From contig CM126209.1 of assembly GCA_052327205.1 (NCBI GenBank), positions 39,866,001 to 39,930,000 of the forward strand: a DNA stretch of 64,000 nt, in the 5' to 3' direction. The translations under genes and the position numbers were made by a program. This document shows positions 3,721 through 61,314 of this stretch, in pieces (positions within the stretch are counted from its first letter, which is position 1; the number at the start of each line of letters is the position of its first letter). The notes beneath the pieces are model-generated. The model was not told the origin of the DNA, ran no database searches, and saw nothing but the letters and a program-made list of their open reading frames with translations. The stretch comes from Somniosus microcephalus (taxonomy: Eukaryota).

Positions 3721-4077
3721 CCGCCAGCCCAACCCCCCCCCTCCCCATATCCTTCTCCCACCACACACTGGAATTTGCAGTGCTTTTTGTGCAGGCAGAA
3801 ACCTGGAGGATCTGGGTTCTAACCCAATTTCGGGCTCCTCCGCTAAGCGATCCATCTGCTCTGACCACAGAATTTCAGTACCCAGGTCATCATTGCAGCT
3901 GGCCTTAACAAATCTGGTAGGTTTACCTTTGGTGATGCCATTGCCACTGTGCACAACAGGCACTGACATCAGGGACAGTATAAAAATGGCTTAATAGTGT
4001 TTGATGTAAGGGCAAAACATAATATGACATTATACACATATGGCAGCTTTTATGTGCTGATACTACTTAAACCTTAC

Positions 4078-4226
4078 CTTAATTTTCTGAACTGGATCAG
4101 CAAATTGTTTGATTGAGGTGTTTTTGATCAATTCTGTAGGCTCTGGTACCTGAAGCAGCCAGCAGTTGTCCTGGGAGGATACTCTGCCGTTCCAATTCCT
4201 CAGATCCAAACAGAATACTCCTTGTC
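4078..4226 (-). CDS. Internal coding exon of a NERD-like-domain host gene: (G)QGVFCLDLRNWNGRVSSQDNCWLLQVPEPTELIKNTSIKQFADPVQKIK
   Basis: Acceptor ttatattttag| and donor AAG|gtaagg. The exon is 149 nt and open only in the frame that matches the phase-1 end of the 10055 exon. The sequence is non-repetitive. Confidence 0.8.
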
Positions 4227-5138
4227 CTAAAATATAATCAGCCATGTCAACAAATTTGGTTACAAGCAGACTGAATATTGGGGTATTCACTGAACTGTGA
4301 TGCTTTACAGCAATAAACATCAAGTGTCGCAAAGAGTTGAACCAAATCAGAGACAAATAGTTCAATCAATAGAAAAATATAATTCATTTTTACTCAAACT
4401 CTGATGAATCGAGATACTTTTTTTTATTTGTCTCAGTCTAACCCCTCAAAATAACTATGAGATCAACCAATGTTAGATTCATTATCAAATGTATCAAGGC
4501 AACCAATCAAATCCAGAGTTGCACCAGTTCCATTCCATGGAACAAGGTCAGGTTCAATCCTGGTGAAGAAGTGAAATTATTTCTCTAGTTCACCCTCCCC
4601 CAAAACCACTTAAATAATTATAATGCAAGAATATAATTAAAAGGACAGTACACTCATCTAAATTTCTACATATAATTCTGATGTTCCTCAGTAAAGTGCC
4701 TGCACAGTTACTGGTGCACACCAATCATTCTTTGTTGCTATTAATTCTTCCAGGCAGGGTAGATCAAAGGTACATATTTTACGCAGGATCTTTCCTTCAG
4801 TAATATTATGAAGTTCAATGCAGTGACAGCAAGGGGCCGATAATTTGGCTGCCATGCAGTGCCGCCGATGCCAGCGTTGTTAAGGAGTTCCAAGCGCCTG
4901 CGCATGAAAGAGTTGACCTCACGCAATAACTCAAGGCCGTCTCATTACATCATTTACTAACACTCTGGGCGCATCTGTCATGATGCACCAGGTGTGCCAG
5001 GGCCACATTACTGGAAGTCAGCATCCAGTGAAGAACTCTGCCTGTTATGCACCTCGCAGTTTCCCATCGTGGGGTGGAGAGGGGCATAGGGCACAGGGCA
5101 GAGGCATAGGGACACCAGGCATGGAGCAGAGATACATA

Positions 5139-6910
5139 GGGCTGGGTTTTACCATCCTCGGTGCGTCCGTGGCGGGCAACGTCGGTGGCAGGTTCCGGCC
5201 TCACTGCTGGCTCCAGCCCGCTGTCCAAAATTATTTTCCCCTGATTGGGCTTGTTAAGGAATTTGTGCATTTGCTGGCCATTGAAGGAAGCGGGTCTGAT
5301 GACTTCATTCAATGACGCGTCATCAGCTGGTTTCCTTAAAGAGACCGTGCGCAAATTAATTTTGACATTGTGCTGTCAGTGTTTTACAACATTGAGCTAC
5401 TGCAAACACTGACAAGCACTGCACAAAGGTGCAGGGCTGCACCCAGGCTCTCCCATGACTCCCTCCATATGCATATGGAGGGAGTCACAGCACGCAGCGG
5501 GGTTCTCTTCCCTTCCAATGGGTGGAGGAGACCTGGCCAGGAGATCAACGCAGCCTGGTTGCACATTGCACAAGCAGGGATGTCATCAGGAGGACCAGGC
5601 TGCTGGTTGGCCAACCTTTCAATGATCACAGTAGATCACGAAAAGTTACTGCAAAGCCACACTCAACCTCATCCTACTGTGCCACTCATCACATCCATAT
5701 CACTCTGCCTTCCCTACCCTACTCCTGCACATCCTTACTCGCACCAACTTACCTTGCACCTCCACCCATCCCTCTCTATCTACATTATCCCCTCCCCATC
5801 TCACTAGCCACCCCACACACTCACCCTCATCCTAGTCCAATCATACCAACTAACAACACACAAGGGTAGGCACTTGTGTGTTTTAGCTAATGTTCATGTG
5901 AAGTTTCTGTTAATGTGCTGTCAAACATTGAAATCTTTATTTTCAACACGTTGCGTTCTTGGACAGATTTGTGTGAACATTTGGAAGTGGCTTATTGAGT
6001 TGCAGTGAATGGTGAGACATAACGGTACCCCCCGCAATGGTGATGAGTGTGAAAGGAATGGCTTGGGCATTGTAGAGATCCTTTATGGTGTAGGTGTGGG
6101 GTGGTGCCAACCTGGCACATCATGTGGCAGCCAGGGTGTACAGCGTCAAGTGAAGTAAATCTGGCCATGGTGATGCCATCCCTGGCATCCCGGGCAGCAA
6201 TGTGGTCAGGTGCTGATGCCCTGTGCAGCATCAGTTGATTGCGGGGAAGGTTGGTGTTGTTGTTGGTGCTGCTTGGTTGCCTGGTGCTGCTGTTGTTGGG
6301 GCTGATCATGGTGGGATTCTGAGGATCAAGGCGAGACAGTATAAACAGTACCCATTCTGATGTAATAGATGGCAGGTGAACTTGAGATGGCAGAAGCAAT
6401 CTGTCAATGGTGAGAGAGGTTGTTCCAATGAGGTGACACTGGATAGAGAGTTTGCGCCAAACACTTGCAACCTGCATAAAGCTCAAAACCTGTCTTCCAA
6501 ATGCAGTAAGCAACAACTTCTGAGCTTGGAAAGTAAACAGCTGTGAGTTGGGAGCTTTTATAGCACATATGCAGCTGTCAAGTAATGAGATGATTCCATG
6601 GTCATTCAGCTCCCGCCCTGCTTACCTGTGGTGATCCCTGAGCAGCATAGACCCCGTGGGCGACCTGGTAAACACTGAAGGTGAGCTGAAAATAGTTCTT
6701 AATCCTCTCGTAACAAGGTCATAATGACCTGAATTGCCTCCCCCGCCGCTGCGTGTCGGGTCTGCTCAGTAATGACAGTCCCGACATTTGGGAAAGGCAT
6801 GTGGTGGCGGGTTAACAGCGGGGTCCCAACCCGCTGTCAACATTTTTTTCCCCACCCGACCTGCCACCAATCGCGCCTACTGACCCCCCCGCAAATGTCT
6901 CCCCCCCCCC
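5139..6910 (+). mobile_element. Non-autonomous Harbinger deletion derivative (Myb/SANT exon remnant on +, degraded transposase-side sequence on -)
   Basis: Begins GGGCTGGGTTTT with ATA on both flanks. A remnant reads RAAPRLS...VLFPSNG...AAWLHIA. It is colinear with 26387-28204. Confidence 0.75.
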
Positions 6911-7193
6911 ATAATGTTTAAAGGCAGCCTCCCTTTCAGCGCCCATTCCCATTTTAACTTAAAGTCGGGTAACTAATGAGCCTAGGGTACAAGTTATGCA
7001 CTGGCTTCCGGCCCCCTCTGTGCTGGCCCCTTGCATTTGGGGCATGGTGAACATCTTGGGTACGTTGTAGGTTGGAAACACTGCCATTATATTATCAGCC
7101 GCTACGATTCTTACATCTGTCCCTCTATCCATATCAATGACATCATGAAGATCTGTTCCAATTATATCACGTAGCAGGCGATACCACACAAAG

Positions 7194-7375
7194 GGGTGAA
7201 ATTGGTTTTCACCAGTAGCGCGAAATGGGCGATTGCAAATGGGCAGCCTGTTTCACACCGCACTCGATTTTCTTTTCTCTTGATATCAATGGAGAAGAAA
7301 ATTGGGTCCAGTTCTAAATAGGCTGTCGATTCGCTATCACCTGTTTTGCACTACTGGCAAAGACCAATCTCACCC
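7194..7375. mobile_element. Old, fully palindromic MITE (Harbinger-like ends)
   Basis: Ends GGGTGAAATTGGT...ACCAATCTCACCC. The arms pair imperfectly along about 90 bp around a central TTGATATCAA. Confidence 0.7.
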
Positions 7376-7519
7376 TGAAAACATCTGTTTAAGTCTGCGT
7401 CTAACAGATAATTCAAAAATATAAAACACAGAACAAGGGGAGTTGAGACGAATCAGCAGGCAGACAATACTTTTCTTAATATTAATGATAGAATGATGTG
7501 GTAAATAAGCTGAATATAG

Positions 7520-7850
7520 ATTCGGCCTTGAGCTATGAAGTTAGACTTCATGCTTTGGGTTTGGATTCGCTGGAGAGGCACAGAGATAAAGGAGTGTCTG
7601 ATTCAGATATTTAAAATGATTAAGGTATATGATAGATGAATAGATTGCTTGAGGTGATGGGGCCAGTTTGAACTAGTAGCCACGCATTTAAAGTAAGGAA
7701 GCAGAGAGTGAGTTGGATGTGTGGAAGCTTTAATTTTCTCAAAAGGCTGATCGACCTGTGGAACGAGATTGTGGAGGTGGTAGTGAGGACTGATAGCTCG
7801 CAATCCTTCAAAAAGGCAATAGATACAGTTCTGGAAAAACTAAACATTCA
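7520..7850 (+). mobile_element. Degraded CR1-like LINE 3' fragment
   Basis: Remnant of the CR1 C-terminal region (SYE.RL..LGL.SLE..., FLKRLIDLWNE). Confidence 0.6.
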
Positions 7851-8988
7851 CGGCAGAAGGAAGTTAAGATTGCGGGTAATAACTAACAGGTTGGGGGCCT
7901 CCTCGGCCTTGCCCAATTGCCTATGAGGGGGTTGGAAAGTAATATGATAGCTGATTCCTGAATTGGCTACAAGTCTTTGTTATTTTCCTCGCCCAAGAGG
8001 TGTAGTGAGGATGGGTCAGTACGATAAGTCCAGCAAAGAGTGAGGCAAGCATGTATGAGCCTGATATCCTTTTCTCGTCCCAAGTACATAACAGAACACT
8101 GGCGCTAATAGCACGGAGATTTGCCCAAAGGAAGCATATACCAGGAAATCGAACTGAAGGTCAGCAGGATAAATCTACAGTAAAACTGTCTTGGTCATGC
8201 CTCACAGGGCAGTAGTACATGAAGCTACAGTCTCAAATTAGAGGTAAATATATCCAAAGACTATTATAAAGATTTAGTTCAGTATAGTTTGAAGAGAATG
8301 TGCTTCAAGCTTCATTGTTAATTCTTCTGTGTATTTACATTTATGTACATGAATTTGATCTCTTGCATTTAAAATATCTAAGGTTTATTGGTCTTTTGTG
8401 CAGTGAAAAAATTTTGACCGAAGGTTAAAATGTTACATTTATAATGACTTTCCTTTACTCGCTCCCCATTTCCATTTATTACTATTCCCTTTGATCATCT
8501 TCTTTGTGCTTTTAATTTGTGAGAAATTAGCACTAAATCAACAATTTTACTCAAACAGACCATAAGAGCTGACAATCACTAGTAACTGGGTTACGACTGC
8601 CTAACTTATTCAAACTTTGGTCCCACAGGAGAAAGTAAAGTCTTCAACACAGTGTACCACTCAGAGATCTTTCATGTTTGCTTTCAATTAGTTAATTTCA
8701 AATTTGTTAGTTGCCATTGGATATCACCCCTCTCCTCTGTTATTGACAATCACCAATCATTTCCACAGAGGTTCTCCTGATCATCCACAATATGGCATTT
8801 ATGCCGTTTCTCCGGGGTTTCCAAAGCTACTGAGGACAATCGGAAGAACCATTGTGGACATTCTACCCCAATATCTTTAAAGAGAAGTAGAAGTGCTTAA
8901 ACACCTTTTCCAAAATACTTGTAACACACCAGCAGTTTTTAAAGCATCCGGCTAAAAAATGTGTTCTGAACACAATGGCAGTAACATT

Positions 8989-9670
8989 CGGCCAGATATT
9001 CCGATCCCTACAGGTGGGTACATGCTGTGTACCCACCCGTAGGGACATCGGAAATGCCGGTTTCTGGCATGAACTGCGCATGCGCTGAAAACCGGCATTT
9101 CCAATCTGTCAAGAATGGTCTTGACAGATCCTCCGGCTGCCTGGGAGAAGAGCCTCTGCAGGCGGATAGTTCCGCTTTTTAGAGACCCTCTGCCCGCAGA
9201 AAACCCTTACAATTCTTACGGCTGGTAAAAGCAGGCGTAAGGTCTGCTTTTACCAGGATAAGAGTAGAAAAAAAGTTTAAAAACATTTTTTTTTCACTGA
9301 TTTATCATTTAAAAATACTTTAAAAAAGGTGATTATTTTTAGCCCTGTAAAGTACTTAATTATTTTTTCAAAAAATTACATTTTTGTTTAAAATACTTAA
9401 TTTATTGTAATTTCAAGTCATTTTAAAAATGTGATTTAAAAAAAAATGTATTTAAAGTTTTACTGTACTATGTTTTTTCATTGATCTCCATTCATATATT
9501 TGACAGGTCTTCCTGTCAAATGTATGAAGGGAGATTCCCTTCTGTGATTGGCATCTCATGGCCCATGTGATCCCAGGGACGCTGCGAACTACATGCGCCC
9601 CTGGGATATGTGGGCCCTGCACACTTGGAGTTTGGTGAGGCCCAGGAGCGGAAGTGTGTGCGTACGGGCC
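8989..9670. mobile_element. Divergent relative of MITE family A
   Basis: Same order of internal hairpins and AT-rich core as the 644 and 33352 copies. ATT on both flanks; the right TIR is largely lost. Confidence 0.75.
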
Positions 9671-10054
9671 ATTGTATTAGAAGAAAAATAAACAATAAGC
9701 ATGCCTGCGGTGTCTGTGATACTTTTGTAACTTTATAAACTTTAAGTGGAGCCAATACCTACAATTTATTCTTGCACTGTCCTGAAGCACTATATGCATG
9801 CTTAAACTTCACTCACAGCATGAGAACTGTCTAATTCAATAATAATGATGTTCCTGATGTTAAAATAATCTAACATTTAATAGTTATTTTTCCAGTCGTC
9901 ATATGACTTAATTTCAGTTTACATCGGTGATCTGTTACAACTGATAGCATCTCTTACTGCTTGCATGCAGACACAAGCTAAACATTATAGTAGTGAGTCC
10001 TTTAGAGGCATCAACAAAAAACTTTGTCTTACAGTTTGAAAACAAGATATGCAC

Positions 10055-10155
10055 CTGTGAGAACAACAACATTGATCTCCTCTTTCGATTTCTGAAACTG
10101 GTCTGGGACTCGCAGATTACAGAAAATTGCTTCTTTTGCCAATCCACCCAGCAAT
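10055..10155 (-). CDS. Internal coding exon of the NERD-like host gene: (R)LLGGLAKEAIFCNLRVPDQFQKSKEEINVVVLT(G)
   Basis: Acceptor ttttcttaaag| and a weak donor CAG|gtgcat. It is 101 nt, phase 2 to phase 1, and joins both neighbouring exons in frame. Confidence 0.78.
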
Positions 10156-10234
10156 CTTTAAGAAAATATATAAAGTAACAGTTTAATGAAAATGTATTTC
10201 CATTCATTTCTCTAAGCTTAACTTAAGGAATTAT

Positions 10235-10891
10235 GGCCTATAAATTCGGTGATGCCCCGCCAGCACGTTTGCGCTGGAAATTTAGCGCCCGCCGCCGAGC
10301 CAGTTGTGCCCACCCCAAATTCACTTTGTGGGTGGGCACAACTGGCTGAATTTCAGCGCTGCCGGTCCCGCTGCGTCACCCGATGCGGTGCGGCAGGCTG
10401 CTGTACTGCAGGCCTCCCCCTTCTCTTAAGGGGGAGCTGCCTGCAATGGCCGGAGCCCCGTTGAAAGTGCCGGCAAAAGAGCCCGGCACAACGGCGAAGT
10501 GCCGGGCTCCACGGAAACCAGCCGGCAATGCCGCGGGGGGGGGGGGGGTGGTGGAGGAGGCCGGGGAAGGAGGTGCGGGCAGGCGGCCGCCGAAAAAGCG
10601 GCCGGCCGCACCTCCGCTTTAAATAGCGCCTCTAAGGCTGCAGCACGGCCCGGTCTTCACAACGTTGTTAGCGGCCGCCAGGGAAGAGGCGGCCGCTACT
10701 GAGGATGGGGATCGGCGTGGTTTCGGCCGTTACCGGGGCACTGCGCACACCGATAACGTCATCGGTGCCGGCGCAGCGCTACCGGCTAACGCCGATGTTA
10801 GGGCGCACCTAATTTCGGACGCAGCGTTGCTTCCGGCGCAAACCACTGTAACGCCCCTAAGTGGGCGTAAACGCTACCGAATTTCTAGGCC
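10235..10891. mobile_element. GC-rich Harbinger-type MITE family B (divergent, opposite orientation to the 43793 and 56906 copies)
   Basis: TIR GGCCTATAAATTCGGT...ACCGAATTTCTAGGCC with TAT target duplication. Confidence 0.9.
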
Positions 10892-11394
10892 TATGTCTTC
10901 ACTGTTGGAGTCATTGACTTGTGGAATAGAATGCAGTAGATGCTGGCTCAGTTGAAGTATTCAGAAGGGATCTCAATCAATTCCTGATTTAACAAATGCA
11001 CAAGGGATAAAACAATTGGTTGGACTGAGTCATGAAACAGGACCTGGGTGACAAGAGTGAGCCAAATGGGGTGCTTTCTATTTTCTTATGTTCTTAACTA
11101 TTATTAATAATCACAATACAGGCAGTGTGGAGCACATCACATTGAATAGTAACTGCATGGATCAGTAGGACACAGGGTTGTACTGGGTATCACCACAGAA
11201 TACATTTTCAATCCTGGACATGCCACATGGAAAGCCCTGAGTGGATGCCATACATTTCTTCACAGGTAAGGAGGCAACTAATTATTCCTTCACACACCCC
11301 TCAGAGACCTAAGAGTAGATACTGCATCTGCTCAATTGACAAAAGGGTGATGGAGGCAAATTCAATGGTGCATAATACGGGGAGATCCAAAGCA

Positions 11395-11630
11395 AGAAAA
11401 AAGAAAGACTTGCATTTATATAGCGCCTTTCACGACCACCAGACGTCCCAAAGTGCTTTACAGCCAATGAAGAATTTTTGAAGTGTTGTCACTGTTATAA
11501 TGTAGGAAACGCGGCAGCCAATTTGCACACAGCAAGCTTCCACAAACAGCAATGTGATAATGACCAGATAATCTGTTTTAGTGATGTTGATTGAGGGATA
11601 AATATTGGCCAGGACACCGGGGATAACTCC
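11395..11630 (-). mobile_element. SINE 3' portion (Deu-domain-like core plus tail)
   Basis: Reverse complement aligns with 43345-43563 and ends GGCGCTATATAAATGCAAGTCTTTCTT. Confidence 0.8.
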
Positions 11631-12427
11631 AAAGGAAAACAGGCAAGGGAAATAACAATTGAACATTATTCAATGCCAGAAATAATACTGATTTTAAAAG
11701 TTAGAATACTTTTTTTGTTCAAGTATTAGAATATCATTTAAAAATCTAAAATGGAAATTCATTTTGATTTTGAATTTTGTATGTTATCCCGGCTTGCAAT
11801 TGGAATAACTGGATGTAGTAACTCCGACTAAAACCAGTAGGAGTTGTTCAGTTAACTGTCTAAGCAGCATTGAGCACTTGTAATGAGCTTGCATTATTTC
11901 TACACTGATTTTGTACAGTTTTGGCATGTACAAAACAAAAGTAAAATGGAAGATGAATTTTAATACAGAGAAGTGTAAACTCTTACATTTTGCTTATATA
12001 GTTCTGTGTTCCATTTGCTTTGTTGCTAGATACTCTTCAGTGATTGGGTATTCTGAGTCTACTAAAACACCTAGGGCTAGATTTTCAGTATAGACAGTTT
12101 TGGGGCGCTAACCTTAGCGCCCGCCCGAAGTTAGCGCCCGCCCCAAAGTAGCGCCCCGTTGCCGGAAATTCAGTGGCTTCGCCCTAAGAGATTGGTGGAG
12201 CGCTAAAAGAGGCGTTCCACTCCTATCTTTAGGCGCTAAGCCGGCGGTCCAGAGGGATAGCGCCCAGGCGGGGCGCAGCGCGGGTGCGGTCATTTTTGGA
12301 CTGACAGCAGACCCCGTGGCGCCGACCAGCTCTTAAAGGGGGAAGGGACGAATTGGTCTGCTGCCACGCCCTGCACACTGCAGCCTTGCAAAGAGGCCTC
12401 AACACTGCTGCTCAGCCCCAGGGAGTC

Positions 12428-14530
12428 ATGGCAACGCCAGAGAAGGCCCGTCAGCGTGCCCTGCGCTTCTCAGAGGGTGATCTGGACATAATGGTCACAG
12501 CTCTGGAGGTGAGGCACAAGATCTTGTTCCCAGAGAGTGGGAGGAATCCAACCCACCACGACTACACCAAAGCCTGGAAGCAGATCGCCCAGAGGGTGAC
12601 GTTCACCGGCGATGCCCCCAGGACCCACAAACAATGTCGTAAAAAATACAACGATCTGACCAGGATTGTGAAGGTGAGTAGCCTTTCCAGTCTCCTCCTC
12701 ATTCTTGCATGTACACCTGACATGATGGGCAAAGGGAGCTGAAAGTCCTATTGGCCAGCCCTCAGCCAGCAGCATTGGGACAGTCATGAGCATCACATGG
12801 CCATTCGGCACTCTACACTCTGTCCACGCTATTCCACCATGGGAGGCAGTGCACACTACATCAGGGCTTCACTCTGTCCACGCTATTCCACCATGGGAGG
12901 CAGTGCACACTACATCAGGGCTTCACTCTGTCCACGCTATTCCACCATGGGAGGCAGTGCACACTACATCAGGGCTTCACTCTGTCCACGCTATTCCACC
13001 ATGGGAGGCAGTGCACGCTACATCAGGGCTTCACTCTGTCCACGCTATTCCACCATGGGAGGCAGTGCACACTACATCAGGGCTTCACTCTGTCCACGCT
13101 ATTCCACCATGGGAGGCAGTGCACACTACATCAGGGCTTCACTGCGCACTTACAGCCCGTCCTTTCTCTTGCAGGCTAAAGTAGCGTTTAATCGCCAGGC
13201 GCGTGCCAGGGGTGGCCGCACCAAGCTGCAGAAGCTCACTCGGCTGGAGGAGCGCGTGTGTGTGCTCATGGGAGCCCGTGTGATTGTCCCCACAGCGTGC
13301 GGAGTATCCGACCCTCCACTGCCCGGCAATGGTAAGGACCTCGCCTTTTGGCCCTCTCGCGTCGCACTGGCCCATCCGAGCTACCTCCTTTGCCACTGTC
13401 CCAACAATGCGCTGAATGCCACCAGTCCTAACTCCCTCGCTGACGCCGTCTCCTCACTCTGAAGCTACTCTTGTGCATTCCTGCTTTCAGCTGGTGACGA
13501 CCAGGACCCTGAAGCTGCCAGTGACAGCACCTCCGACCAGGAGGAGGAGGAGGAGCAAGCCGGACCTTCGGGGGAACAGTCACGTCCCGCAGGAGAGGAG
13601 GAAATGCTTGACACCTCCTCACTGGACGAGTGCCTGGAGGAACTGTCGCAGGGCAATGCAGCTTCTGGGACCAGTGGCGTCCAGCCACCCAGGAGCCGTG
13701 CGCGTGGCCCGCGGCCTTCCCCCCAAAGGGGGGAAGGATCAGAGGGGAGTGCTGCTGTTCGGCACACTCGCCGCCACCAACGCTGCAAGGGTCCCCTAGT
13801 TCGGCCCCCTCCTCCCCAGCGGGAGAGTCGCGACTCCAGTCCGGACACCTTCACCTCGGAGGAGGTGCGGAAGCTGGATAAGATGGCCGAGGATTCGGAC
13901 CGGCGCCACACGGAGCTCATGAGCGTGGTGGGGCGCATGCCTGAGGCCATCGAGTCGCTGGCGACCAGTGTGCGCGAGTTCGGGGCAGCAACTGCCGCGA
14001 GTGGCCGCATGCTGACTGATGCCGTCAAGACCCTGGCGGCTGTGATGCGCGCGCACAGCAGGACCACAGGGGCACTCACTGCTGCCACACGCGCTGTCTC
14101 AGGCAGGCATCGCCAGGGCAGCCGCCGCGCTGGCCAATCCCAGCAAGCCGCCCCTTGGCTGATTGTTGCGGATCCTGCAGTGCGGGCCCGGCCGAGTGCC
14201 ACCGCGCCACAGCACCAGCCAGCGCATCCCAGACGCCAGCTGGCCCACATTGCGCCATCTGTCGCCGCCATTCCCCCACTGGGGCGTCAAGGGCAAGCAG
14301 CTGCAGCTGATGGTGGCCAGGCTCAGGTGCGCCACTCAGCAGACGGCCCCTCGAGGCCCAAACGCCGTGTAGGCCGCCCCCCAGCGGCATCTGGCGGAAG
14401 GGCATCTGAGCCTCAGGCGCCTTCCCCCAGCCTCGCAGCAGCCACTGGGCAGAGCTTGCGAAGGAGCAGCAGGCCGGGCAGGGGAGGCAAAAGGCTGGGC
14501 AAGGTCTCGCCCTCGCGGGCCACTCAGTAG
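12428..14530 (+). CDS. Harbinger Myb/SANT-like DNA-binding protein, 3 exons (12428-12673, 13175-13331, 13491-14530), 480 aa
   Basis: Exon 1 encodes RALRFSEGDL...AWKQIA...QCRKKYNDL. Junctions are AAG|gtgagt, ttgcag|GCT, ATG|gtaagg and tttcag|CT, with consistent phases. The spliced total is 1443 nt, open to TAG. Confidence 0.88.
12816..13143 (+). repeat. 54-bp minisatellite, 6 near-identical copies, in intron 1 of the Myb gene
   Basis: Unit CACTCTGTCCACGCTATTCCACCATGGGAGGCAGTGCACACTACATCAGGGCTT. I see one substitution, in copy 4. Confidence 0.97.
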
Positions 14531-14758
14531 AGGGTGTGGGCAGCTTTCCTTTTATATGGCGGTGGCCATCTTTATTTTGCCCATGGTTGTGTTGTTGGAG
14601 GGCTTATTTTTTGCGTTATGCTGACGTTGAGGCCCGGTTTGAAGAAAGGTGGAGTGACTCCTCCCCAGTTTGTGGGAGTGAGTCATTTGTTGGGCTTTTT
14701 GTGGGGCCCGTTTATTGTTTTTGGGGATTCATGTGGGAAGGGCTTTTCATTTTTGTGT

Positions 14759-14778
14759 AATAAAAAATTATCTTTATT
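14759..14778. terminator. Closely spaced polyadenylation signals of the two convergent Harbinger genes
   Basis: AATAAA on + at 14759-64 and AATAAA on - at 14773-78, between the two stop codons. Confidence 0.6.
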
Positions 14779-14893
14779 CATGCAGTCTCCATGGTTGTTC
14801 TTCTTAGTGTTTGTTGGCTTCGCCGGCTGAGGGCTTGCGGAGCGGCTGCATTCATCTTCCCTCATGGCCCCTGGCCATTCCCTGACAGGGGGC

Positions 14894-16036
14894 TTAGAAG
14901 TACCGTGTAATAAGGTGGCGTCGTGCGGCCCTTGGCCCTGGTCGCTCCCTCCTGGGAACGTACTCCTGCTCCTCCTCCTCCTCCTCCTCATGCTCCTCCT
15001 CCTGAGGTGCTGGTCCAACGTCAGGTGGCAGTGCCTGAGTCCTGCGGATAGCCAGGTTGTGTAGCATGCAGCAAACCACCACAAATTGGGAGACCCGGTC
15101 CGGCGAATACTGGAGAGCTCCTCCGGAGCGATCAAGGCAGCGGAACTGCTGCTTGAGGACCCCAATAGTTAGCTCGATGATGTTGCGGGTGGTTTGATGG
15201 CTCTCGTTGTAGGCCTCTTCAGCAGCGGTCCTGGGCGCGCGGAGCGGGGTCATGAGCCAGGTGCACAAAGGATAGCCTTTGTCCCCGAGTAGCCATCCTC
15301 TTGGGGGAGGCTGTGCCTGGAACATGTCATGCACAGTACTCTGCCGCAGGATAAAGGCATCGTGGCTGCTGCCTGGGAAGCTGGCATTGACTGCCATGAT
15401 GCGCTGCTTGTGGTCACACACCAGCTGCACATTCAGAGAATGGTAGCCCTTCCTGTTGCGATACTGCTCGCCATGCTCCAGAGGGGCCCGCAAAGCCACA
15501 TGCGTACAGTCAATGGCGCCCTGCACCAAGGGGAATTCCCCGAGTCTGGAAAATCCCAATGCGCGCTGATGCTGGCTCTCCAGGGCCATGGGGAAGGAGA
15601 TGAATTGGCTTCTCCTTCTGAACAGTGCTTCGGTCACCTGGCGGATGCAGCGATGCGCGCCGTACTGGGAGATGTTTGCTATGTCCCCAGCAGCGTATTG
15701 GAAGGAGCCGGTGGCATAGAAGTTCAATGCCACCGTCACCTTCACTTCCACCGACAGAGACGTCCTGCACCTGAGCTTTGGCCGCAGATCTCGGCAAAGC
15801 AGGTGGCAGATCTCTGCAATCACCTCCTTTCGGAATCGGAGCCTTTTAACACATCGCGCAGCACTCATGTTTAGGTAGGAGCGCTGCTGGCGGTATAGCC
15901 TGACTGGGTAAGGCCTACGTGGCCGATGCCTGTAGCCCCCTCTGCCTCTAGCCAGGGCTGCCCCTCTCACAATGCGTCTGCGAGCCCTACGGACATGGAG
16001 CTGCAGCTCCGCGTTGGCACCCCATGCAACCCCCAT
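14894..16036 (-). CDS. Harbinger (HARBI1-like) DDE transposase, 380 aa, intact
   Basis: Motifs [54 protein letters not shown] and CCMLHN. No stop or frameshift; first ATG at 16036. Confidence 0.96.
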   Translation of the reverse strand: MGVAWGANAELQLHVRRARRRIVRGAALARGRGGYRHRPRRPYPVRLYRQQRSYLNMSAARCVKRLRFRKEVIAEICHLLCRDLRPKLRCRTSLSVEVKVTVALNFYATGSFQYAAGDIANISQYGAHRCIRQVTEALFRRRSQFISFPMALESQHQRALGFSRLGEFPLVQGAIDCTHVALRAPLEHGEQYRNRKGYHSLNVQLVCDHKQRIMAVNASFPGSSHDAFILRQSTVHDMFQAQPPPRGWLLGDKGYPLCTWLMTPLRAPRTAAEEAYNESHQTTRNIIELTIGVLKQQFRCLDRSGGALQYSPDRVSQFVVVCCMLHNLAIRRTQALPPDVGPAPQEEEHEEEEEEEQEYVPRRERPGPRAARRHLITRYF

Positions 16037-16559
16037 CAAATCCTGGCAAACACTCTAATTTCCAAAAGGCCACTTGCAGCGCTCTGGCCTGAGTCCAAAA
16101 ATACCTGGCTCTTGCTGCTTGAAACCAGTTAGCTATCCTCCTTGTTGTGTCTCCAGAAATGCGTTGCACAAGAGTGTTTTCTGAAAAAAGGCTGGCCTTT
16201 ATACTGGAGAGTACGTCCCCTTTAATTTGCTCCCCCCGGGGCCCGCGCTGGTTGTGTTGCGTTTCTTTTTCCAAACGCTCCGGCCGCCAGCCGCACAATG
16301 GGGCGGTCCGACTGAAGTTTGGAATCGGGGCGCACAAAGGGCGTTGCACGAGGATGTGACGTCATTTTCTGCGCGCGCATCCGGGCGGGCGCTAAACTTT
16401 GCGCCGGCGCTAACGGGCAACTTAATTTGGGGCGGGGCGCAAACTGCGCTGCGCCCGGGCGCTACACGCATAGCGCCCGAAAATCACTTCTCTTAAGGCG
16501 CTAACTGCTGGCGCAAGCGACTGAAAATCTAGCCCCTAGATCTCTTTCAACATCATTCT

Positions 16560-17650
16560 TATCTATTTTGACACCATTCATGAAGCACTTATATTGTCCA
16601 ATTTTTCCTATGTGAAGTATTTTGCACTTCTCCATATTAAATTTAATCTGCCATGTTCTGACCACTTACACGTTTTGTATAATTTATTTTGTAGTTTACA
16701 AGATGCCTACTCAGATTCAACTGCTCCTATTAGTTTATCATTTGTAAATATGACGTTTGCATTAAGCTTCTGAATCTATATCATTAACATAAATTAGAAA
16801 CAGCATCAATCCCTACTGCACCCCGCTGACCAATTCTCCTCACTTCGACATAATAATACAAATACCCACTGCCTCTCATCCTTCTGATCCATTCCTGAGC
16901 TTTACCCTGAATTCCCACCACTTTAAGCTGAACTAATAGCCTTTCATGCAGAAGTTTATCAAACACTTTTTCGCAAATCACCTGAGGGCTTCCACGGTCC
17001 TTACTCAAAAAAATGAAGGAGGTTGGCCAGATGGAATCTTCCCCCTTCTGAACCTGTATCATACAGGTAGTTATGTTTACTCCTGCTAATCAAAGGCACC
17101 ATGAGGAAAAACTTTTTTACGCAGCGAGTGGTTATGATCTGGAATGCACTGCCTGAAAGGGTGGTGGAGGCAGATTCAATCGTGGCTTTATAAAGAGAGT
17201 TGGTAAAGTAAATGAAGGAAAATAATTTGCAGGGCTACGGGGAAAGGGCAGGGGAAGCTGAAGTGCTCTTGCAGAGAGCCAGCATGGGCTTGATGGGCCG
17301 AATGGCCTCCTTCTGTGTTGCACCTATTCTAGGATTCTAAGTCTATTCTTTAAACTAGTACTGACGGCACTAATTTCTGAAATTACTTAGGTCTGATAAA
17401 CAGTTACCACATTAGCCTATTATTCAGCAACTTCCTCATAATTAATGTCATTGGCTCACAAAACTCACCCCTTATCTCCCTTAGTACTTTGGGATAAATA
17501 CTATCCATTTCTATTTTTTTTTGCCAGCCTAGAGCTTCAATCTCATTTCTGTCATTAATTCTACTTGGATTATCACTCATTAAGGAAGGCATGCTGTTCA
17601 CATCTTCACTAATGAATATTTAGTGGAAGTAATCATTTAGTGTAGTAACC
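16560..17650. mobile_element. Cluster of degraded CR1 fragments (16560-17070 on -, 17100-17340 on +, 17400-17650 on -)
   Basis: Remnants KVFDKLLHERLL and IYPKVLREI, plus a CR1 3' UTR (gggccgaatggcctccttctgtg). Confidence 0.7.
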
Positions 17651-18269
17651 ACCACATGGTCACCTTCAATTTCAAGAAAGTTAGCATATCTTAGGGGTGC
17701 TCAGGAAATGCTCTTACTGTCTTGTTGCAATTATATTTGTGTCTGCAGTTGTTCTTTGTCTTAGGTTTCTCCTTTCCCTTATACCATAATAGAATAGTCA
17801 GTCCAATTATATTCTGTATTCTTCTGACATCAAGGTTAGGGGCAAATGTGCTATTAAGATTTTTTATGACTCTGGACAACATCTTTCATAGAAATAAGGA
17901 CAATTTACACATTAATAATTGCAAACGCATTAAACTCACCGTTATATTGCCAGAAAATTCTGGCCCAATATCTTACTACTGTTGACAAGGAAGGTGGGGA
18001 AAGAAGGACAGCACAGTTTAACTGCCCCTCTCTTGCTTCCACCCCACAATGACTTGGTTCTTTTTTTTTGTTACTTTGATATTTAAGCTAATAAACAGTG
18101 AACTTTCTGTAAACAACTGTACTATTAACAATTAAAACTTGGTAGAACAGCTGCTTTAAACCTATTCACAAAGTAATCACACTTCATTATTCTGGACCAA
18201 TATTGGGCTAATATTGGAGATTAAAAAAGAATGTAACTAATTATTAATGTTACTAACAATGCACTTTAC

Positions 18270-18405
18270 CTTAGCTTTAAAAGAAATTTCTGAAAAGCTT
18301 GCAGTTCAAAAAAATTTTCTTCATTTTCAGGAAATTCAGAAGGGCCACATGCTTGTTGAACCTGGACCAATCGACTTTCAAACTTCAACATCTTTCTATG
18401 TGAAC
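18270..18405 (-). CDS. Probable first coding exon of the NERD-like host gene: MLKFESRLVQVQQACGPSEFPENEENFFELQAFQKFLLKL(R)
   Basis: Acceptor ttttttgttaccag| and donor AAG|gtaaag. ATG at 18391 has A at -3. The exon ends in phase 2, matching the 10155 exon. Confidence 0.72.
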
Positions 18406-18891
18406 CTGGTAACAAAAAAATCTATAAATATACGGCATAAAACATAACAATATAAACAACAGTTCCATTAACTTTATTCTTTTTACTGTTCGTTAGCAAC
18501 AAGAATTTAGTATAACATATCCTATATTCTCTCAGCAATATGGCATATTGAACATGGGAAAAGGTATAAAAGGCATTTCACAGTTGGAGGGCAGGTCCTA
18601 CATGTGAGGAGCAGGAGGGGGACTAGGGAAGGTGGCTGAAGGCACTGTTGAAGAGGTAAGTTGTAAGGAGGTTTTTAAAGGTGGGGAGTGATGTGGAAAG
18701 GGAGTTTCAGAGAGTGGAAGTCAGATGGCAGACATCTCTGTCACTGATGGTAGAGCAGAAGGAGGCTAGAATGTGCAGTGGACCAGGGTTGAAAGACTAG
18801 CAGTTGTAGGCAGAGACACAGGGCTTGAGGAGGTTGCAAAGTTGGGAGGTGTAAGGCTGTGCAGCAATGTGGAGATAAATTCTAAGATATT

Positions 18892-21800
18892 GGGCTGGAC
18901 TTTAATGTGCAGGAGCGTGTGGGTTTGGGAGCGGGTGGGTGGTTAAAACTGGAGAAATTGACAGTGCGTCGGGAAGCCGGCTCCAACCCACCAACTTCCG
19001 GGTTTCACTGCAACGCGTTAGGCTGCGTGCAAGCAACACCCTTGGCAGAAGCAAGTTGCCACGTAACATATGTTAATCGCTCAATTATAGCGATATTGAC
19101 ATCAATTTTTCAGTTTAACATTGGTCCACGGGTTTCCCAGGCTTCCTGGAACTCACCAGTGAAAGCAAGGTGAGTACACAGCGGCAATTGAGGGGGCTGA
19201 AGCAATCTCAGGGAAATATACCAATAAATACTCAGTACTCACAGCTGCTTTCTTACCTGCTTGTGGGAAAGGGTTTGCTCTTTGTGCTGAGAGGTTACTT
19301 TACACACTTTGGAGGTATCATCTACACTTTGGAGCTTTGAAAGTCTGATCTGCACTTTGGATCAGGATGGGTGCTGCTTATGCTGCCTCAGATTGGATCT
19401 CAGATGAGGACCAAGATGACCAACAACAGCATCAGCAACAGCGGAAGCAGCAGCCTCCTGGTCACAGACCTGTAGCTCCACAGGAGAGAGGGCAGCAGTA
19501 GAGAGGTGTAGCTCGCAGGAGCCCATACCTGGCACACAGGATCTACAGGCAGAGGATAAGCTTCCTTGACATGTCTGAAAACCAATGGCTCAGGAGGCAA
19601 GAAGGAAGAAGAAAGGACACTTAACAATACAAAATGTGTAAGACACCCATGTGCATACCCTTGTACAACTACAAATCTTTACTCTTCCTTTTCCTAGTGC
19701 TTCTATGTGGTGCAACCCCTGTAGCTTGAGTAGAGGTAGAGTCAGGCTGCTCTTGGTCAAGGTCCTCTGATTTTGGAGGTTTTGGAGCCCGTGAGGGCCC
19801 CGCCAAAGACTGCTCCACCTGCACCTGTGCAGGGACAGACTCAGCCATCGCGACACGGGTACTGACTGGAGGGGTGGGGGGCGGGTGAGGCGACGGATGA
19901 GAAATGGAAGCGCTTTGAGCGGAGTCCCCACTTCCATGACCCCTTTCGCCATCATCCCTCTCATGGCCCAGCCACAATTCCCAATTACCACTGTGCTGGA
20001 GAGCACTTTGCTACAGATCAATGGGGCGCTGCAAGGCCAAGGCTAGGTTATCGTTCATCCTATTTAAGGAGTCATCCAGAGTCTACAAGCCCTTGTTGAA
20101 GGCCTGCATACACTTGTTCAATTGCCGTGTTTGATGCTCCATGCAGTTAGCCACTCTGTCCATGGAAAAAGACATCATCGCAATTACCTGCGACAGCATC
20201 CCACTCATGTTTGAGACAGACTGCTCCAATCTTGCTGCAATCGTGGACAGTGTGCTTAGAGCGCCTGTCAGTACATTGCACAATTTCTGCTGCTGCTCAA
20301 TGATTATCCTCTTCATCGACGGCTCCCGGGATACAGCATCTGCGTCCAGCTGAGCAGAACTTGGAGAGGGCTGCGCCCTCCGACCTGGACTCTCCACTGC
20401 TGTCCCTGACTCCACCATTTGCTCTTGCTCACTTGTGAAGTGCGAGTCACCAGGTGAAAACCCAACTATCTCTGTAACTGGTCCCACCAAAGTGCGAGTA
20501 TCTGAACTGGTGCATGGTCTGCATAAGTCCTGTGATGGTGCACCCTCAGAGGGATTGAGCTCCTCTGAGGAGTCAATCAAAATTGATATAAATTTTCAAA
20601 ATGGCTCCTGGTCAGGCAGCACCTTACTGAGCAGCTCTTCTCTTCAACTGCATCCTTGGTCATCCATTACCATCCTTTGCCCTTTCTTCCCCCAATCTCC
20701 TTTCTTCCATTGCTTAAGATACCCTGGTTCTGATAGTGAAGGCATTTTAGCCCAAAATACAAGTTTAAAGCTACTTTGAACTACACTGGATTACACCACT
20801 ACGCTTTTGCACTGGATTACACTGGATTACACTGTAAGACCTACCTGCTGTGTCTCTATCTCTGCTGCTAAAAGATTTTCTTTAAATAACTTTTAAACTG
20901 CGGCTGTGTCTCTGCTGAACTGGTTCTACTGATTTTTTCAGCTTTGTTGGCTTCTGACTAGCAGCTGCTGTTTCACTTGCTGTCTGGTAACTTGTTCTAC
21001 TGGTTTTCAGCTTTGCTGGTCGCTGGCTTGTGGTTTTACTTTTTCTCCGCCGCTTTGATCTATGGTGACCTCCAACTTGCGGCAATTTCGCCATCATCTT
21101 TCTTCACCGCTACCGACTCTCATTCCTACGGCAACAACCTCCATCCTCGAACTCTCGACCCTTCAAATAGCTTCTGGACTTCACTCGCCTGCTTTGGACA
21201 ACGGTTCATTGATGCTCCATGCCGGCTCTATCCTACTTACGTCGGCTTTGTCCCTCCATGGGACCTCTGATTTTGACCCTGGTCACCCTACTATTGTCTC
21301 CAACCGATTCGCTGCTACCAGGAAATATGTATCTCATTAATTAATAAATAACCAGGCCTATGTAACCTGAGTTTTTCCCTGTGTCCATTCGTGTGCGCAC
21401 TTTGGCTGCCGCTCCTGACCTGAGGCGTTCATTTCTTTATCCACCTTTTCTCCCCCTTTTCCTTTTCTCTCTATCCCTCCCTGACCACTCTCTCCTGTCG
21501 TCATGCCTCCTTTCATCTCTCCTCTCTGATACTCTGCCCTCCCAAATTCCTACCCCAATTCTTCATTACTCTTCGACCTTCCTACTCTCCTGCCGCCATT
21601 CCAGGCTTGACTCCCTCTTAGATAATCCTACAGCTTCCCTCTGTGCCTCTCTTGGCATCCTACGAAGGGCCCATCAAGGCACTAGTCGCTGCCTCCTTAT
21701 GAGCAGCAACCCCAACTGTCCCATCCTACTCTCTCACTGACCTTCCCGCCCAGCGCGGCCACTGGGGGATAATCTTGCCAGTCTCCTCCCTGTCCAACTC

Positions 21801-28512: not shown

Positions 28513-30106
28513 AGACTTCAAGAAAGGTGACAAGTCCGATTGCGGTAATTACAGAGGAGTTTCCCTGTTGTCTGCCACAGGGAAAGTCATTGCAAGAATC
28601 CTCCTCAATCACCTTCTCCCAGTGGCTGAAGAGCTCCTCCCAGAGTTGCAATGTGGATTCCGCCCACTAAGGGGCACAATGGACATGATCTTCACCGTGC
28701 GTCAACTACAAGAGAAAAGCAGCGAACAGCACCAACCGCTGTACATGGCCTTCTTTGACCTCACAAAGGCCTTCAACGCTGTCAACTGTGAGTGGTTATG
28801 GAGTGTCCTCCTCAAATTCGGCTGCCCTCAAAAGTTGGTCACCATCCTCCGCCTGCTTCGCGATGACATGCAAGCCGTGATCTTGACCAACAGATCCACC
28901 ACAGACCCAATTCACGTACAGACCGGGGTCAAGCAAGGCTGTGTCACCGCACCAACGCTCTTCCCGATCTTCCTTGCTGCAATGCTCCATCTCACCCTCA
29001 GTAAGCTCCCCGCTGGAGTGGAGCTAAACTACAGAACAAATGGAAAACTGTTCAACCTCCGTCGCCTCCAGTCCAGATCCAAGGTTGCCCCATCCTCTGT
29101 CATCGAATTACAGTATGCAGACGATGCTTGCGTCTGCGCACACTCGGAGGTCGAACTCCAAACCATCGTCAACACCTTCACCGAAGCGTACGAGAGCATG
29201 GGCCTTACACTAAACATCTGCAAGACAAAGATCCTCTACCAACCTGCCCCCGCCACATAGTACGGCCCCCCGATTATCAAAATCCACGATGAGGCCTTGG
29301 ACAACGTGGACCACTTTCCATACCTCAGGAGCCTACTGTCAACAAGGGCAGACATCGATGACCAAGTCCAACACTGCCTTCAGTGTGTCAGTGCAGCCAT
29401 CGGTCACCTGAGGAAGAGAGTGTTTGAAAACCAGGACCTCAAACCCAGTACTAAGCTCATGGTCTACAGAGCAGTAGTGATACCCACCCTCCTGTATGCT
29501 TCAGAGACATGGACCATGTACAGCAGGCACCTCAAAGCACTAGAGAGGTATCACCAATGCTGCCTCCGCAAGATCCTGCCAATGCACCAACGTCAGTGTT
29601 CTCGCTCAGGCCAACATCCCCAGCATCGAAGCTCTGACCACGCCTGATCAGCTCCGATGGATGGGCCACATTGTCCGCATGCCTGATACGAGACTCCCAA
29701 AACAAGCGCTCTACTCGGAGCTCCGGCACGGCAAGAGAACCCCAGGTGGGCACAGGAAACGCTTCAAGGACACCCTCAAAGCCTCCTTGAAAAAGTGTAG
29801 CATACACACCGACACCTGGGAATCCCTGGCCCAAGATCGCAAAAAGTGGAGGAGAAGCATCCGGGAAGGCACCGAACACCTCGAGTCTCTTCGCCGGGAG
29901 CAAGCGGAAGCCAAGCGTAAACAGCGGAAGGAGCGCACGTCAACCCAAGCACCTCACCCACCCGCCCCTTCAACCACCGTCTGCCCCACCTGTGACAGAG
30001 ACTGTAGGTCCTGCATTGGACTCATCAGTCACCTGAGAACTCATTTTTGGTGTGGAAGCAAGTCATCCTCGGTTCCGAGGGACTGCCTAAGAGAAGAGAA
30101 GAGAGA
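28513..30106 (+). mobile_element. RTE-clade LINE, 5'-truncated
   Basis: Motifs NYRGVSLL, QCGFRP, GVKQGC, LQYADD and a C-terminal CPTC...HLRTH finger; (GAGAA)n tail. A 16-bp target duplication TCTATGACC(A/T)GATTTA lies at 28497-512 and 30107-122. Confidence 0.93.
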
Positions 30107-56277: not shown

Positions 56278-59200
56278 ATGCCGAAGAGTGGCAGTATCAC
56301 CGCATTTGACAATGAAGTCGAAGATTGGACTACATAATGTCGAACGAATAGAGGTATACTGCAAGGCAAATGAGGTGTCAGATGACAAGAAAGCGTCGGT
56401 ATTGTTAAATTTAATGGCTGCAAAGACGTATGGTTTATTATGAAATCGAGTAACCCCAACGAAGCCAATGGAAAAGAGTTTTGAAGACATAGTAATGATA
56501 CTACAGGAACATTTAAACCCCACACCGCTGCTGATAGCAGAAAGATTCAAGTTTCACAAACGGAACCAGCATAAGGATGAAAGCAATGCTGATTATTTAA
56601 CAGAACTGCGCAAACTATCGAAACACTGCCAGTTTGGAGCGGGACTGGCAGATACCTTAAGGGACAAGTTTGTGTGTGGGCTTCAAAGTGAAGGAACCCA
56701 GAAACGGCTTTTATCTGAAAAGGACCTTACGCTGGAAAAGGCTTTCAGCATTGCGGTATCATATGAAGCAGCAGCACGGGGCGCTGCAGAGATACAACAG
56801 AGACCGCAAGAATATGGCACAAACGAAATGTCATATGGAACAGAGAAGTGCTGTCGCTGCGGCAGAACAACACACGACCAGAATGATTGCTGGTTCAAAG
56901 ACAAAGGCCTAGAAATTCAGTGCCCTTAGCGCCGATTTTGCGGCGCTAGAGGGCCTAGCGCTGCAATTGGCGCCGAAATTGCCTGGGGCCCTTCCGCCGC
57001 GGTAGACCGGTAGCGCTGCGCCGGCACCGATGACGTCATCGGTGTGCGCAGCGTCCCGGTTGCCATGGCGACGGGCCCCAGCGCCGAAATTCAGTTGCGG
57101 CCGCCTCGCCCGTGGCAGCCGCAACTAAGACTCTGGCAACAGAGTCTTACCTGACTTTGCGCCGGCGCATTAAAGGCCCCGCGGCGGCCGGCCGCTTTCC
57201 CGCCGGCCGCCTGGCAGCAGCTCCCTCCCCGGACTTCCCCCCCCCCCCCCCCCCCGGAACAGAAGCAAGCCCGGCACTTGTCCGAGGTGCCGGGCTCATT
57301 TTTAAAACGATTTTCGCGGGCCGCGGCCGGGTGCAGGCAGCTCCTCCTTAAGGGAAGGAGGAGGCCTGCACTTCCCGAACCTGCCGCACCGCAGCGGGCG
57401 CCACAGCGCCGGAATAGCGCCGATATTCAGCGCGTAGCGCCAGTTTTCAGGCACAAACACCTCTCAGCAGCGCCGGCAGCCGTTTGGGCCCAGAACTATT
57501 GAATTTTGGGCCCGACCAGCGCGACTTAGCTCCGGCACTAACTTCCGGCGCTAAAGCCCTGGCTGCGCCAAAACTCAATTTCTAGGCCAAAGTGTGCAGA
57601 CAGTGTGGAAAAGTAGGACACATAGCACGAGTCTGCAGGTCGGGAAAGAAAACCAGCAATAAGAAACCTGCCAAAGGAAAGTACAAGAAGGTACATAAGA
57701 TGACGGAGAATAGTTCAGACGAACAAAAGAGTGATAACGACTCCAAAAGCAGGGAACTGAGTTGTCTGAAACTACATAATGTGATCACAATGGAGGATCA
57801 CCGAACCATTTGGGTCACTCTCAAGATAGCAGGAGTCCAGGTAAAGATGGAATTGGACACAGGATCAGCCCTAACAGTCATAAACCGACGGGACTACGAG
57901 CGGCTACTCTCACACATACCCTTGAGAGACACAAAAATTATTTTGAAGATGTACACGGGGCAAAAAGTCTACCGCAAAGGAAAAATAAGGGTGACCGTTA
58001 TATATAACGGTAAGGAAACACCAAAACTAGACCTGTATGTATTGCAAGATGGAGGACCACCATTACTGGGACGTGAATGGATCCGGAAAATACAACTGGA
58101 TTGGCATTCCACACAGACAATGACTATGGCTGACAAAAAGGATGACGACGTCACACCTGGGCGACTGTCAAAGATCCTAACTGACGCGAAAGAAGTGTTC
58201 CAGCAAGGACTCGGAACACGAAAAGGCATGTCAGCGACGATTAAAATTGAAGAAAACGCAAGCCCAAAAGTTTTTAAGGCCAGACCGGTACCTTATGTGA
58301 CCCGCCCAGCCGTCGAAGCAGAGCTGGAGAGTCTGGAACGTTCAGGTGTACTGTCCAAGGTAGACTGGAGCGAGTGGGCTACACCCATCGTCCCTGTCAT
58401 GAAAAAGTCGTTGAGCAGCACGCCTGCGGAACCAAGGAAGGTTCGCATCTGTGGGGACTTTAAGGTAACAGTGAACCCAGTCCTTCAAACCGTACAATAT
58501 CCACTTCCGCGGATTGAAGATATTTTCGCCTCGCTATCTGGAGGGAAACACTTCACTAAGATTGATCTGGCCCAGGCGTATCTGCAAATGGAGGTAGAAG
58601 AAGCATCAAAAAAATACCTCACAATCAACGCCCATAAAGGTCTCTACCAATACAACCGGCTGGTATTCGGGGTAGCATCAGCTCCGGCTATTTGGCAGAG
58701 GGCAATGGAACAAGTCCTGCAAGGGATCCCAGGGACCCAGTGTTATTTGGACGACATCCTGGTCACGGGCGAAAATGACAGTGATCACCTTGCCAACCTG
58801 GAGCAGGTGCTCAATAGATTGCAGGAATATGGGCTCCGAGCTAACCGCCCCAAATGCGAGTTTTTTAGAAAACAGATCTTGTATTGTGGCCATGTTATCG
58901 ATAAAGAGGGGTTCCATAAGTCCCCAGAGAAGATTGAGGCAGTAGTCAAGGCTCCAGCACCGGAAAATGTGTCACAACTGAGGTCGTTCCTCGGGCCGGT
59001 AAACTACTACCATAAGTTCTTGCCAAATTTGTCTATAATACTACACCCACTGAACACCCTACTGCAAACTGGGGTGCCATGGAAGTGGAGTGACGAATGT
59101 AGACAAGCTTTCCAGAAGAGCAAAACACTAATCACATCGAAAGAGGTATTGGCCCATTACAACCCGGCATTACCAATTCGGTTGGCATGTGATGCGTCAC

Positions 59201-60918: not shown

Positions 60919-61314
60919 ATAGACTATTTTCAGCTAATGTTGCATGTTAAATGTGTTAATTGTAATTAGTTTGATATTTAATTGTCAAATGAGTGTTATG
61001 GTACTGTTAATCTGAAAGGGGAGGAATTGTAATGTATATACCTTTTAATGGGGGAACTACTTTTTACAGCTCATGTATACTGCAGTATCGGCAGTGACCA
61101 CACCTGTATATAGCACTGAGTAGTAATCTGTACAGACCAGTTCCCGTGTGAGCCACGTTGAGTAAACACCTGTTATACCGTTCTCCTGCAGTCTGTGTCT
61201 TATTATACACAGACACAACAAGGATGCTGGTCAAATAGCTCGGAATCCGCAGGGTTTGGCCATTGTCGATGCTCAGGTAAGAAGGTGCGAGGCAAAAGAG
61301 TTTGATTTACTAGG

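Follow-up and report, generated by a model that had tools for sequence, protein, structure and literature searches.

The 64,000-nucleotide (nt) window analysed here (Somniosus microcephalus, assembly GCA_052327205.1, contig CM126209.1, positions 39,866,001 to 39,930,000) carries on its minus strand the first three coding exons of the cartilaginous-fish orthologue of zebrafish si:zfos-911d5.4, a gene annotated as uncharacterised, whose product is altered at all four catalytic positions of the NERD nuclease family (Pfam PF08378). To judge from these residues catalysis has probably been lost in sharks, and the shark protein is tentatively read, at a little less than an even chance, as a pseudonuclease from a probable RNA endonuclease family that binds RNA or ribonucleoprotein (RNP) without cutting. 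The locus itself is known and is not a discovery, since many fish genomes already list the gene together with its Pfam domain; an earlier sequence-only reading of the window could not name it.

Coding exon 1 (18270..18405; this and all following exons and introns are on the minus strand) comprises 14 nt of 5' untranslated region, the ATG at 18391 and 122 coding nt for residues 1-41, including the motif I helix with E29 and F33; it is supported by AG/GT ends and frame fit, an aligned transcript-like contig and a tblastn-type match to residues 1-44 of orthologue P0001. Exon 2 (10055..10155, 101 nt, residues 41-75) encodes the invariant R56, E67 and N69, the last replacing the motif II aspartate, and exon 3 (4078..4226, 149 nt, residues 75-124) encodes D82-x-R84 in place of the motif III E-x-K, together with W86 and D118. 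The exons are separated by intron 1 (10156..18269, 8114 nt, phase 2) and intron 2 (4227..10054, 5828 nt, phase 1), all ends are AG/GT, and together they supply 124 codons. Intron 3 begins at 4077 and runs through position 1 past the left edge of the window for a total of 23,230 nt. Searching two orthologues against the window's genome (G000) placed exon 4 (G000:C8:39846619-39846847, 229 nt), exon 5 (G000:C8:39839898-39840118, 221 nt) and exon 6 (G000:C8:39635688-39635855, 168 nt including the stop) 19, 26 and 230 kb to the left of the window, with introns 4 and 5 of 6500 and 204,042 nt. The six spliced exons give 990 nt, encoding 329 amino acids and a stop without internal stops. The sequence-only reading had thus joined the three exons correctly, with phases 2 and then 1, into a peptide that matches the exon translations on inspection by eye, and had rightly extended the gene leftwards.

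The predicted splicing is borne out. Contig 1 of run X1 (537 nt), whose RNA type is presumed and whose organism label differs from that of the window, was treated as transcript-like and from a close relative; it aligned to exons 1, 2 and 3 in order with 7 mismatches in 386 aligned letters, joining 18270 to 10155 (skipping 8114) and 10055 to 4226 (skipping 5828), both as CT..AC on the plus strand. Both junctions proposed for an RNA check were therefore recovered in X1; in X8 and X9, two raw RNA runs of which 24% and 31% were read, neither was found among the joints listed (31 further joints lie outside these). Exon depth in X8 and X9 was near zero (0 and 0.44 in the exon 3 bin, 0 and 0 in the exon 1 bin), the many aligned reads fell on repeats, and expression in these samples is low at most.

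Orthology is supported by strong conservation. Searched alone, exon 3 matched four of 6 candidate proteins, each from a cartilaginous fish and each carrying PF08378, three of them named 'uncharacterized protein si:zfos-911d5.4'. The 124 residues of the window are identical to the annotated Pristiophorus protein at 118 positions, which places the host near Pristiophorus among cartilaginous fish, and to that of Callorhinchus at 99, and the 329-residue product is 94% identical to Heptranchias (267/284 aligned), 87% to Stegostoma, 80% to Callorhinchus, 63% to sturgeon across 329 residues, 49-53% to two teleosts and 42% to starfish. By eye, the single-exon open reading frames (ORFs) of teleosts start and stop where exons 4 and 5 do. 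Within the window's genome, three protein searches matched this locus alone (12-22 candidates scored per search), and a PF08378 family search gave zero matches, missing this gene itself and so saying nothing on paralogues; the gene appears to be single-copy and its product soluble.

The family proved much wider than in the sequence-only reading, which took NERD to be known mainly from prokaryotes and some plants, and the gene is no vertebrate oddity. A phmmer search against 1.84 billion representatives returned 161 matches at E 0.001, and a profile search 79 matches among 8000 candidates scored. Orthologues labelled 'uncharacterized protein si:zfos-911d5.4' or 'NERD domain-containing protein' in NCBI and UniRef occur in sharks, rays, chimaera, lampreys and ray-finned fish, and the earlier reading as a spliced vertebrate gene holds; the named vertebrate members come from sharks, rays, chimaera, sturgeons, paddlefish, gar, bowfin, many teleosts and, as two paralogues, lampreys. 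Outside vertebrates, named members were found in amphioxus, the ascidian Phallusia, starfish, crinoids, a brittle star, the soft coral Xenia, the moss Ceratodon, Coleochaete and Picozoa, and, of 55 loci from bacterial and archaeal genomes, 44 reached an E-value of 1e-13 or lower; these belong to Planctomycetota, Hydrogenedentes, Oligoflexales and Proteobacteria, in the last with a scattered distribution. Coelacanth, lungfish and tetrapods were absent from the named matches, which is a lead only, zebrafish being absent from these incomplete lists too; none of the retrieved sequences was the zebrafish protein. In a quick-search tree of 67 rows, from which 20 near-redundant or partial rows were left out and in which the window's product is not a row, branching broadly tracked animal relationships, the vertebrate clade had SH-aLRT (Shimodaira-Hasegawa-like approximate likelihood ratio test) support of 99, and the nearest relatives of the window gene formed a clade at 99 within it. 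In both lamprey paralogues, P0026 and P0227, motif II has S and the motif I glutamate is missing, and one of the two sits on a long branch.

The catalytic set of NERD is E in helix 1, D in strand 2 and E-x-K in strand 3, corresponding to E535, D567, E580 and K582 of ZwsA, where four substitutions in NERD impaired defence (10.64898/2026.04.06.716636). The window product has F33 (TTT, 18295-18293), N69 (AAT, 10073-10071), D82 (GAT, 4206-4204) and R84 (AGG, 4200-4198) at these positions, the acid of motif III being the sole remnant. The codons bear out the D-to-N change in motif II and the DxR of motif III that had been read from the letters, where the loss of the motif I glutamate to F33 had been missed. 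Among 95 aligned homologues selected for domain coverage, the full E/D/E/K set was present in 0/64 vertebrates (14 cartilaginous fish, 8 lamprey, 5 sturgeon-gar group and 37 teleost rows, 5 of the teleosts gapped at motif I) compared to 29/29 others (10/10 named invertebrates, 11/11 invertebrate-like and 8/8 plant or algal rows); since the rows are kin, these counts represent one or few events, not 64. A long-branched pair had the set in 0/2 rows. P0031 and P0037 represent another lineage with a degenerate site, in which motif III reads V or M and R, the R resembling shark R84. The bacterial loci were retrieved by a pattern requiring E-x-K, so their intact motif III, which a regular expression matched in 38/44, is not counted as evidence.

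Because the set is missing from every vertebrate row and present in every invertebrate, invertebrate-like and plant or algal row, including all four residues in Phallusia, from the sister group of vertebrates, the change of the active site maps to the vertebrate stem. The simplest history suggested by the alignment would be loss of the motif I glutamate and E82D on that stem, relaxed N/S/D at position 69, and K84R in cartilaginous fish, by which sharks add to the changes of the si:zfos-911d5.4 group of which the window gene is a member. The motif II aspartate is absent in lampreys, sharks and most teleosts, and the canonical E, D or K residue is kept in 0/14 cartilaginous fish.

The NERD profile, scored on three orthologues (P0001, P0002 and P0004) that are 80-95% identical over the window's exons, gave 34.6, 35.8 and 38.4 bits against a cut-off of 22.1, and NERD was the only Pfam family found; the three single exons searched separately gave 0/3 matches. 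The predicted model has a PD-(D/E)XK fold in the N-domain, with a restriction-endonuclease-like alpha/beta core, and most of its fold matches are DNA nucleases. The NERD assignment of the sequence-only reading accordingly held by profile and by model; the Foldseek comparison it proposed gave no match at E 0.001 for either of the two models. The model suggests a NERD-type domain at ~22-185, a helical linker and a small Sm/Hfq-like beta-barrel at ~217-329. Throughout the family NERD is followed by a C-terminal domain beginning TWD..L.GG..L.GD, which has no Pfam family and is confined to this subfamily, and the barrel is the best-conserved part between sharks and invertebrates (51% vs 38%). In the predicted model the barrel superposes weakly on Sm/Hfq (45-52 residues at a root-mean-square deviation of 1.6-2.8) and appears to share with Sm/Lsm/Hfq proteins a helix followed by two strands bearing a GG turn, and a pair of C-terminal strands. 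It differs from them by ~55 residues inserted between its halves, by the lack of a sequence match and by fusion to a nuclease fold. An Sm-like nature of the barrel is, on the model, rather likely. No LSM/Hfq Pfam family (Sm1, Sm2 motifs) was detected at E 10 on three orthologues, profile A1 found nothing at E 10 among PDB sequences, and profile A2 matched these solely via the S1 domain of its bacterial-type rows. In the ESM Atlas the whole protein matched NERD clusters only (chordate and plant), and the C-domain gave no usable match. An internal duplication of the C-domain was rejected (hhalign of the halves, probability <=1.5%), and a homodimer prediction made without the alignment scored 0.00, which counts neither for nor against.

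RNA is favoured as the ligand, with fair probability, because relatives carry RNA-binding fusions, ZwsA and the trypanosome protein TbLrRP2 have RNA roles, and the barrel is Sm-like. Among 28 relatives picked for a Pfam scan, 9 had a C-terminal S1 domain and 1 an N-terminal CCCH finger; in P0112, which is eukaryotic, a CCCH zinc finger precedes NERD. The ancestral protein would have held RNA between the nuclease cleft and the barrel and cut it via metal ions on E/D/E/K. Bacterial, plant and invertebrate members, keeping the full set, would likely still be RNA endonucleases whose barrel helps to hold the RNA. After loss of the motif I glutamate and the E-to-D change in motif III on the vertebrate stem, the shark protein would retain the basic cleft residues R56, R84 and K126 and the barrel, with the metal-binding set gone, and by binding RNA or RNP in the former active cleft it may serve as adaptor, shield or sensor. 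The fungal Ssd1 is reportedly a comparable case by analogy, a pseudonuclease of RNase II fold with a binding role. RecC, a helicase-nuclease subunit, offers another analogy, having kept the nuclease fold and a binding role and lost the catalytic residues (PMC3424549).

NERD members have been tied to RNA cleavage only recently, and the domain has been described as bacterial with isolated plant and archaeal cases (PMC12702573). ZwsA, a Pseudomonas NERD RNA endonuclease against RNA phage, resembles the window gene in joining NERD and an RNA-binding domain, putative in the window gene, in one chain, but carries VHS, DUF647 and S4 domains and an intact site (10.64898/2026.04.06.716636); beyond NERD the two are compared by layout. 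TbLrRP2, which acts in large-subunit rRNA processing and requires its NERD residues for it, is likewise a eukaryotic NERD protein tied to RNA cleavage; it differs in its membrane anchor and its need for charged residues, and is a separate lineage because its authors' BLAST and HHpred searches gave bacterial NERD relatives only (PMC12702573). Neither these domain sets nor an intact site occurs in the window gene, and the best 19-residue hydropathy in seven animal proteins is 1.0-1.1. It shares with NERD and PD-(D/E)XK proteins at large a profile score above cut-off and the core fold, and departs from them in the four changed positions and the extra C-terminal barrel. Of the PADLOC 2.0 defence systems, only the NERD stretch of PglW and MkoA matched, with no full-length match and no operon. 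A plant GW protein called 'NERD' (PMC13673822) is a homonym outside this family, and a literature match for NERD and zebrafish concerns Tiamat, not this family.

Several observations weigh against a dead enzyme. D69-D82-K84 is kept in 9/64 vertebrate rows, sturgeon, paddlefish, gar, bowfin and four teleosts among them; D82 and K126 are present in 64/64 vertebrates and D118 in 63/63; D for E at motif III is an allowed PD-(D/E)XK variant; and E has replaced G29, a single helical turn away from the lost glutamate, in sturgeons as well as in every cartilaginous fish and lamprey row with a residue there. The helix 1 glutamate contributes in only a subset of PD-(D/E)XK families, and the catalytic E and K can migrate to neighbouring elements, including the second core helix (PMC3424549); ZwsA K582A retained some activity (10.64898/2026.04.06.716636). 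The earlier wording 'altered or dead' thus stands as to altered; dead is likely for sharks, and loss of catalysis appears less likely in sturgeon and gar. The same observations would suit a rebuilt active site, in which the vertebrate protein cuts slowly or on a narrow substrate, with metal held by D82, E/D67, E29 or D118 and K/R84 or K126 as the basic residue. This is considered unlikely: sharks differ at all four canonical positions, position 69 varies between N, S and D, and E29 occurs in only 1/32 teleosts with a residue there.

A scaffold without a nucleic-acid ligand, the dead fold binding proteins or a membrane surface, is credited with a similarly low probability. It has a precedent in staphylococcal SmdA, whose degenerate NERD-like domain lacks several conserved residues, is needed, and can serve without an obvious nucleic-acid role (PMC9040797). 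A near-zero net charge and two short hydrophobic aromatic helices (~184-200 and ~259-270) would agree with it, as would the N-terminal hydrophobic segment of plant members (Kyte-Doolittle 1.8-2.0) and the protein-binding domains among the LSm-fold matches of the barrel (NatC subunit, Edc3). The retention of R56, K126 and K/R84 around the cleft speaks against it, and the S1 and CCCH fusions of relatives point to RNA. Action of the family on DNA, in repair or defence, with a DNA-binding pseudonuclease in vertebrates, seems less probable still. NERD was first proposed to process DNA (PMC12702573), DNA nucleases dominate the fold matches, and 9/28 bacterial loci adjoin prophage, integrase, transposase, restriction or toxin genes; however, the substrate cannot be read from a common fold, the fusions observed involve RNA-binding types of domain and the barrel resembles Sm/Hfq. 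A decaying pseudogene or a chance assembly of exons, to which the near-zero depth in X8 and X9 might point, is refuted by the open frame over six exons, the exact splicing in X1 and the 80-94% identity across cartilaginous fish.

The gene shows an animal branch of NERD that is unstudied and has an additional Sm-like barrel; its active site goes cleanly from complete to altered where the vertebrates begin. It provides a testable function for an orphan zebrafish gene and a natural series from enzyme to pseudoenzyme. Open-licence PubMed Central and bioRxiv main texts held no study of si:zfos-911d5.4, which supplementary gene tables may name, and no paper on the animal NERD family, the NERD and Sm-like layout or the vertebrate change. 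A bolder and rather improbable version, prompted by the patchy bacterial spread, the 9/28 mobile or defence loci and the lack of land-vertebrate names, would make the family an unrecognised ancient RNA-cutting, possibly antiviral enzyme common to scattered bacteria, algae, mosses and aquatic animals, disarmed once at the vertebrate origin, retained over ~500 million years to sense RNA or serve as a decoy, and maybe missing from land vertebrates. If it were true, the natural active and inactive versions in amphioxus or ascidian, sturgeon and shark would allow direct tests of how a pseudoenzyme arises, and its function could be learned from zebrafish.

The bacterial neighbourhoods hint weakly at a past in defence. 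No neighbour was common across clades in 44 loci, and shared neighbours were confined to Oligoflexales, Singulisphaera, one prophage group and a few other close sets. The 9 of 28 scanned loci (122 ORFs, no background control) with mobile or defence neighbours were L007, L022, L024, L028, L030, L035, L036, L037 and L039; among these neighbours are a PglW-like NERD kinase, subunits of restriction systems, prophage genes for head and tail, integrases, transposases and HipA. In L022, L025 and L028, from three alphaproteobacterial genomes, the homologue sits within a prophage head-tail module, and in L007 it lies directly upstream of the PglW-like NERD kinase.

Upstream of the coding region, a candidate non-coding 5' exon was placed at 19257..19299 on the minus strand, with uncertain ends and a donor-like site at 19257/19256. 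The 151 letters that X1 contig 1 carries ahead of exon 1 suggest such an upstream exon, perhaps ending at 19257, and the X1 depth of 1.1 over the bin 19199-19700 equals ~43 letters at depth 12.9. Nearby, at 18960-19180, there is a CpG-richer patch (observed/expected 0.68 at 19000-19199, compared to 0-0.43 in other bins of 18400-19800) with a plus-strand donor-like site at 19169/19170 and mixed-strand low depth in X9; the patch may act as a bidirectional promoter that also gives rise to a divergent transcript. Within intron 5 (204 kb), G000:C8:39765285-39765356 (L003) matched the alternative C-terminus of the Pristiophorus X2 isoform; isoforms of this type shorten the barrel. A splice scan for neighbouring host genes gave 17 candidates and missed the three true exons, and is too blunt for this purpose.

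The remainder of the window is rich in mobile elements. Intron 1 contains a 4.46-kb Harbinger/PIF-type DNA transposon (12074-16535) with perfect 16-nt terminal inverted repeats and identical 3-nt flanks CTA. Its minus strand holds an open 386-residue DDE_Tnp_4 frame (14894-16054), its plus strand a Myb/SANT-like gene from 12305, and a 54-nt tandem array lies at 12816-13143; RNA reads of its family are abundant, and the element is apparently young. A Gypsy-type long terminal repeat retrotransposon at 56444-60918 has a 958-residue open frame with protease, reverse transcriptase, RNase H and integrase domains. Another DDE_Tnp_4 transposase fragment lies at 61203-61916 and a long interspersed nuclear element (LINE) reverse-transcriptase piece at 28514-29260, and further LINE-like and Myb-like pieces fill the window.

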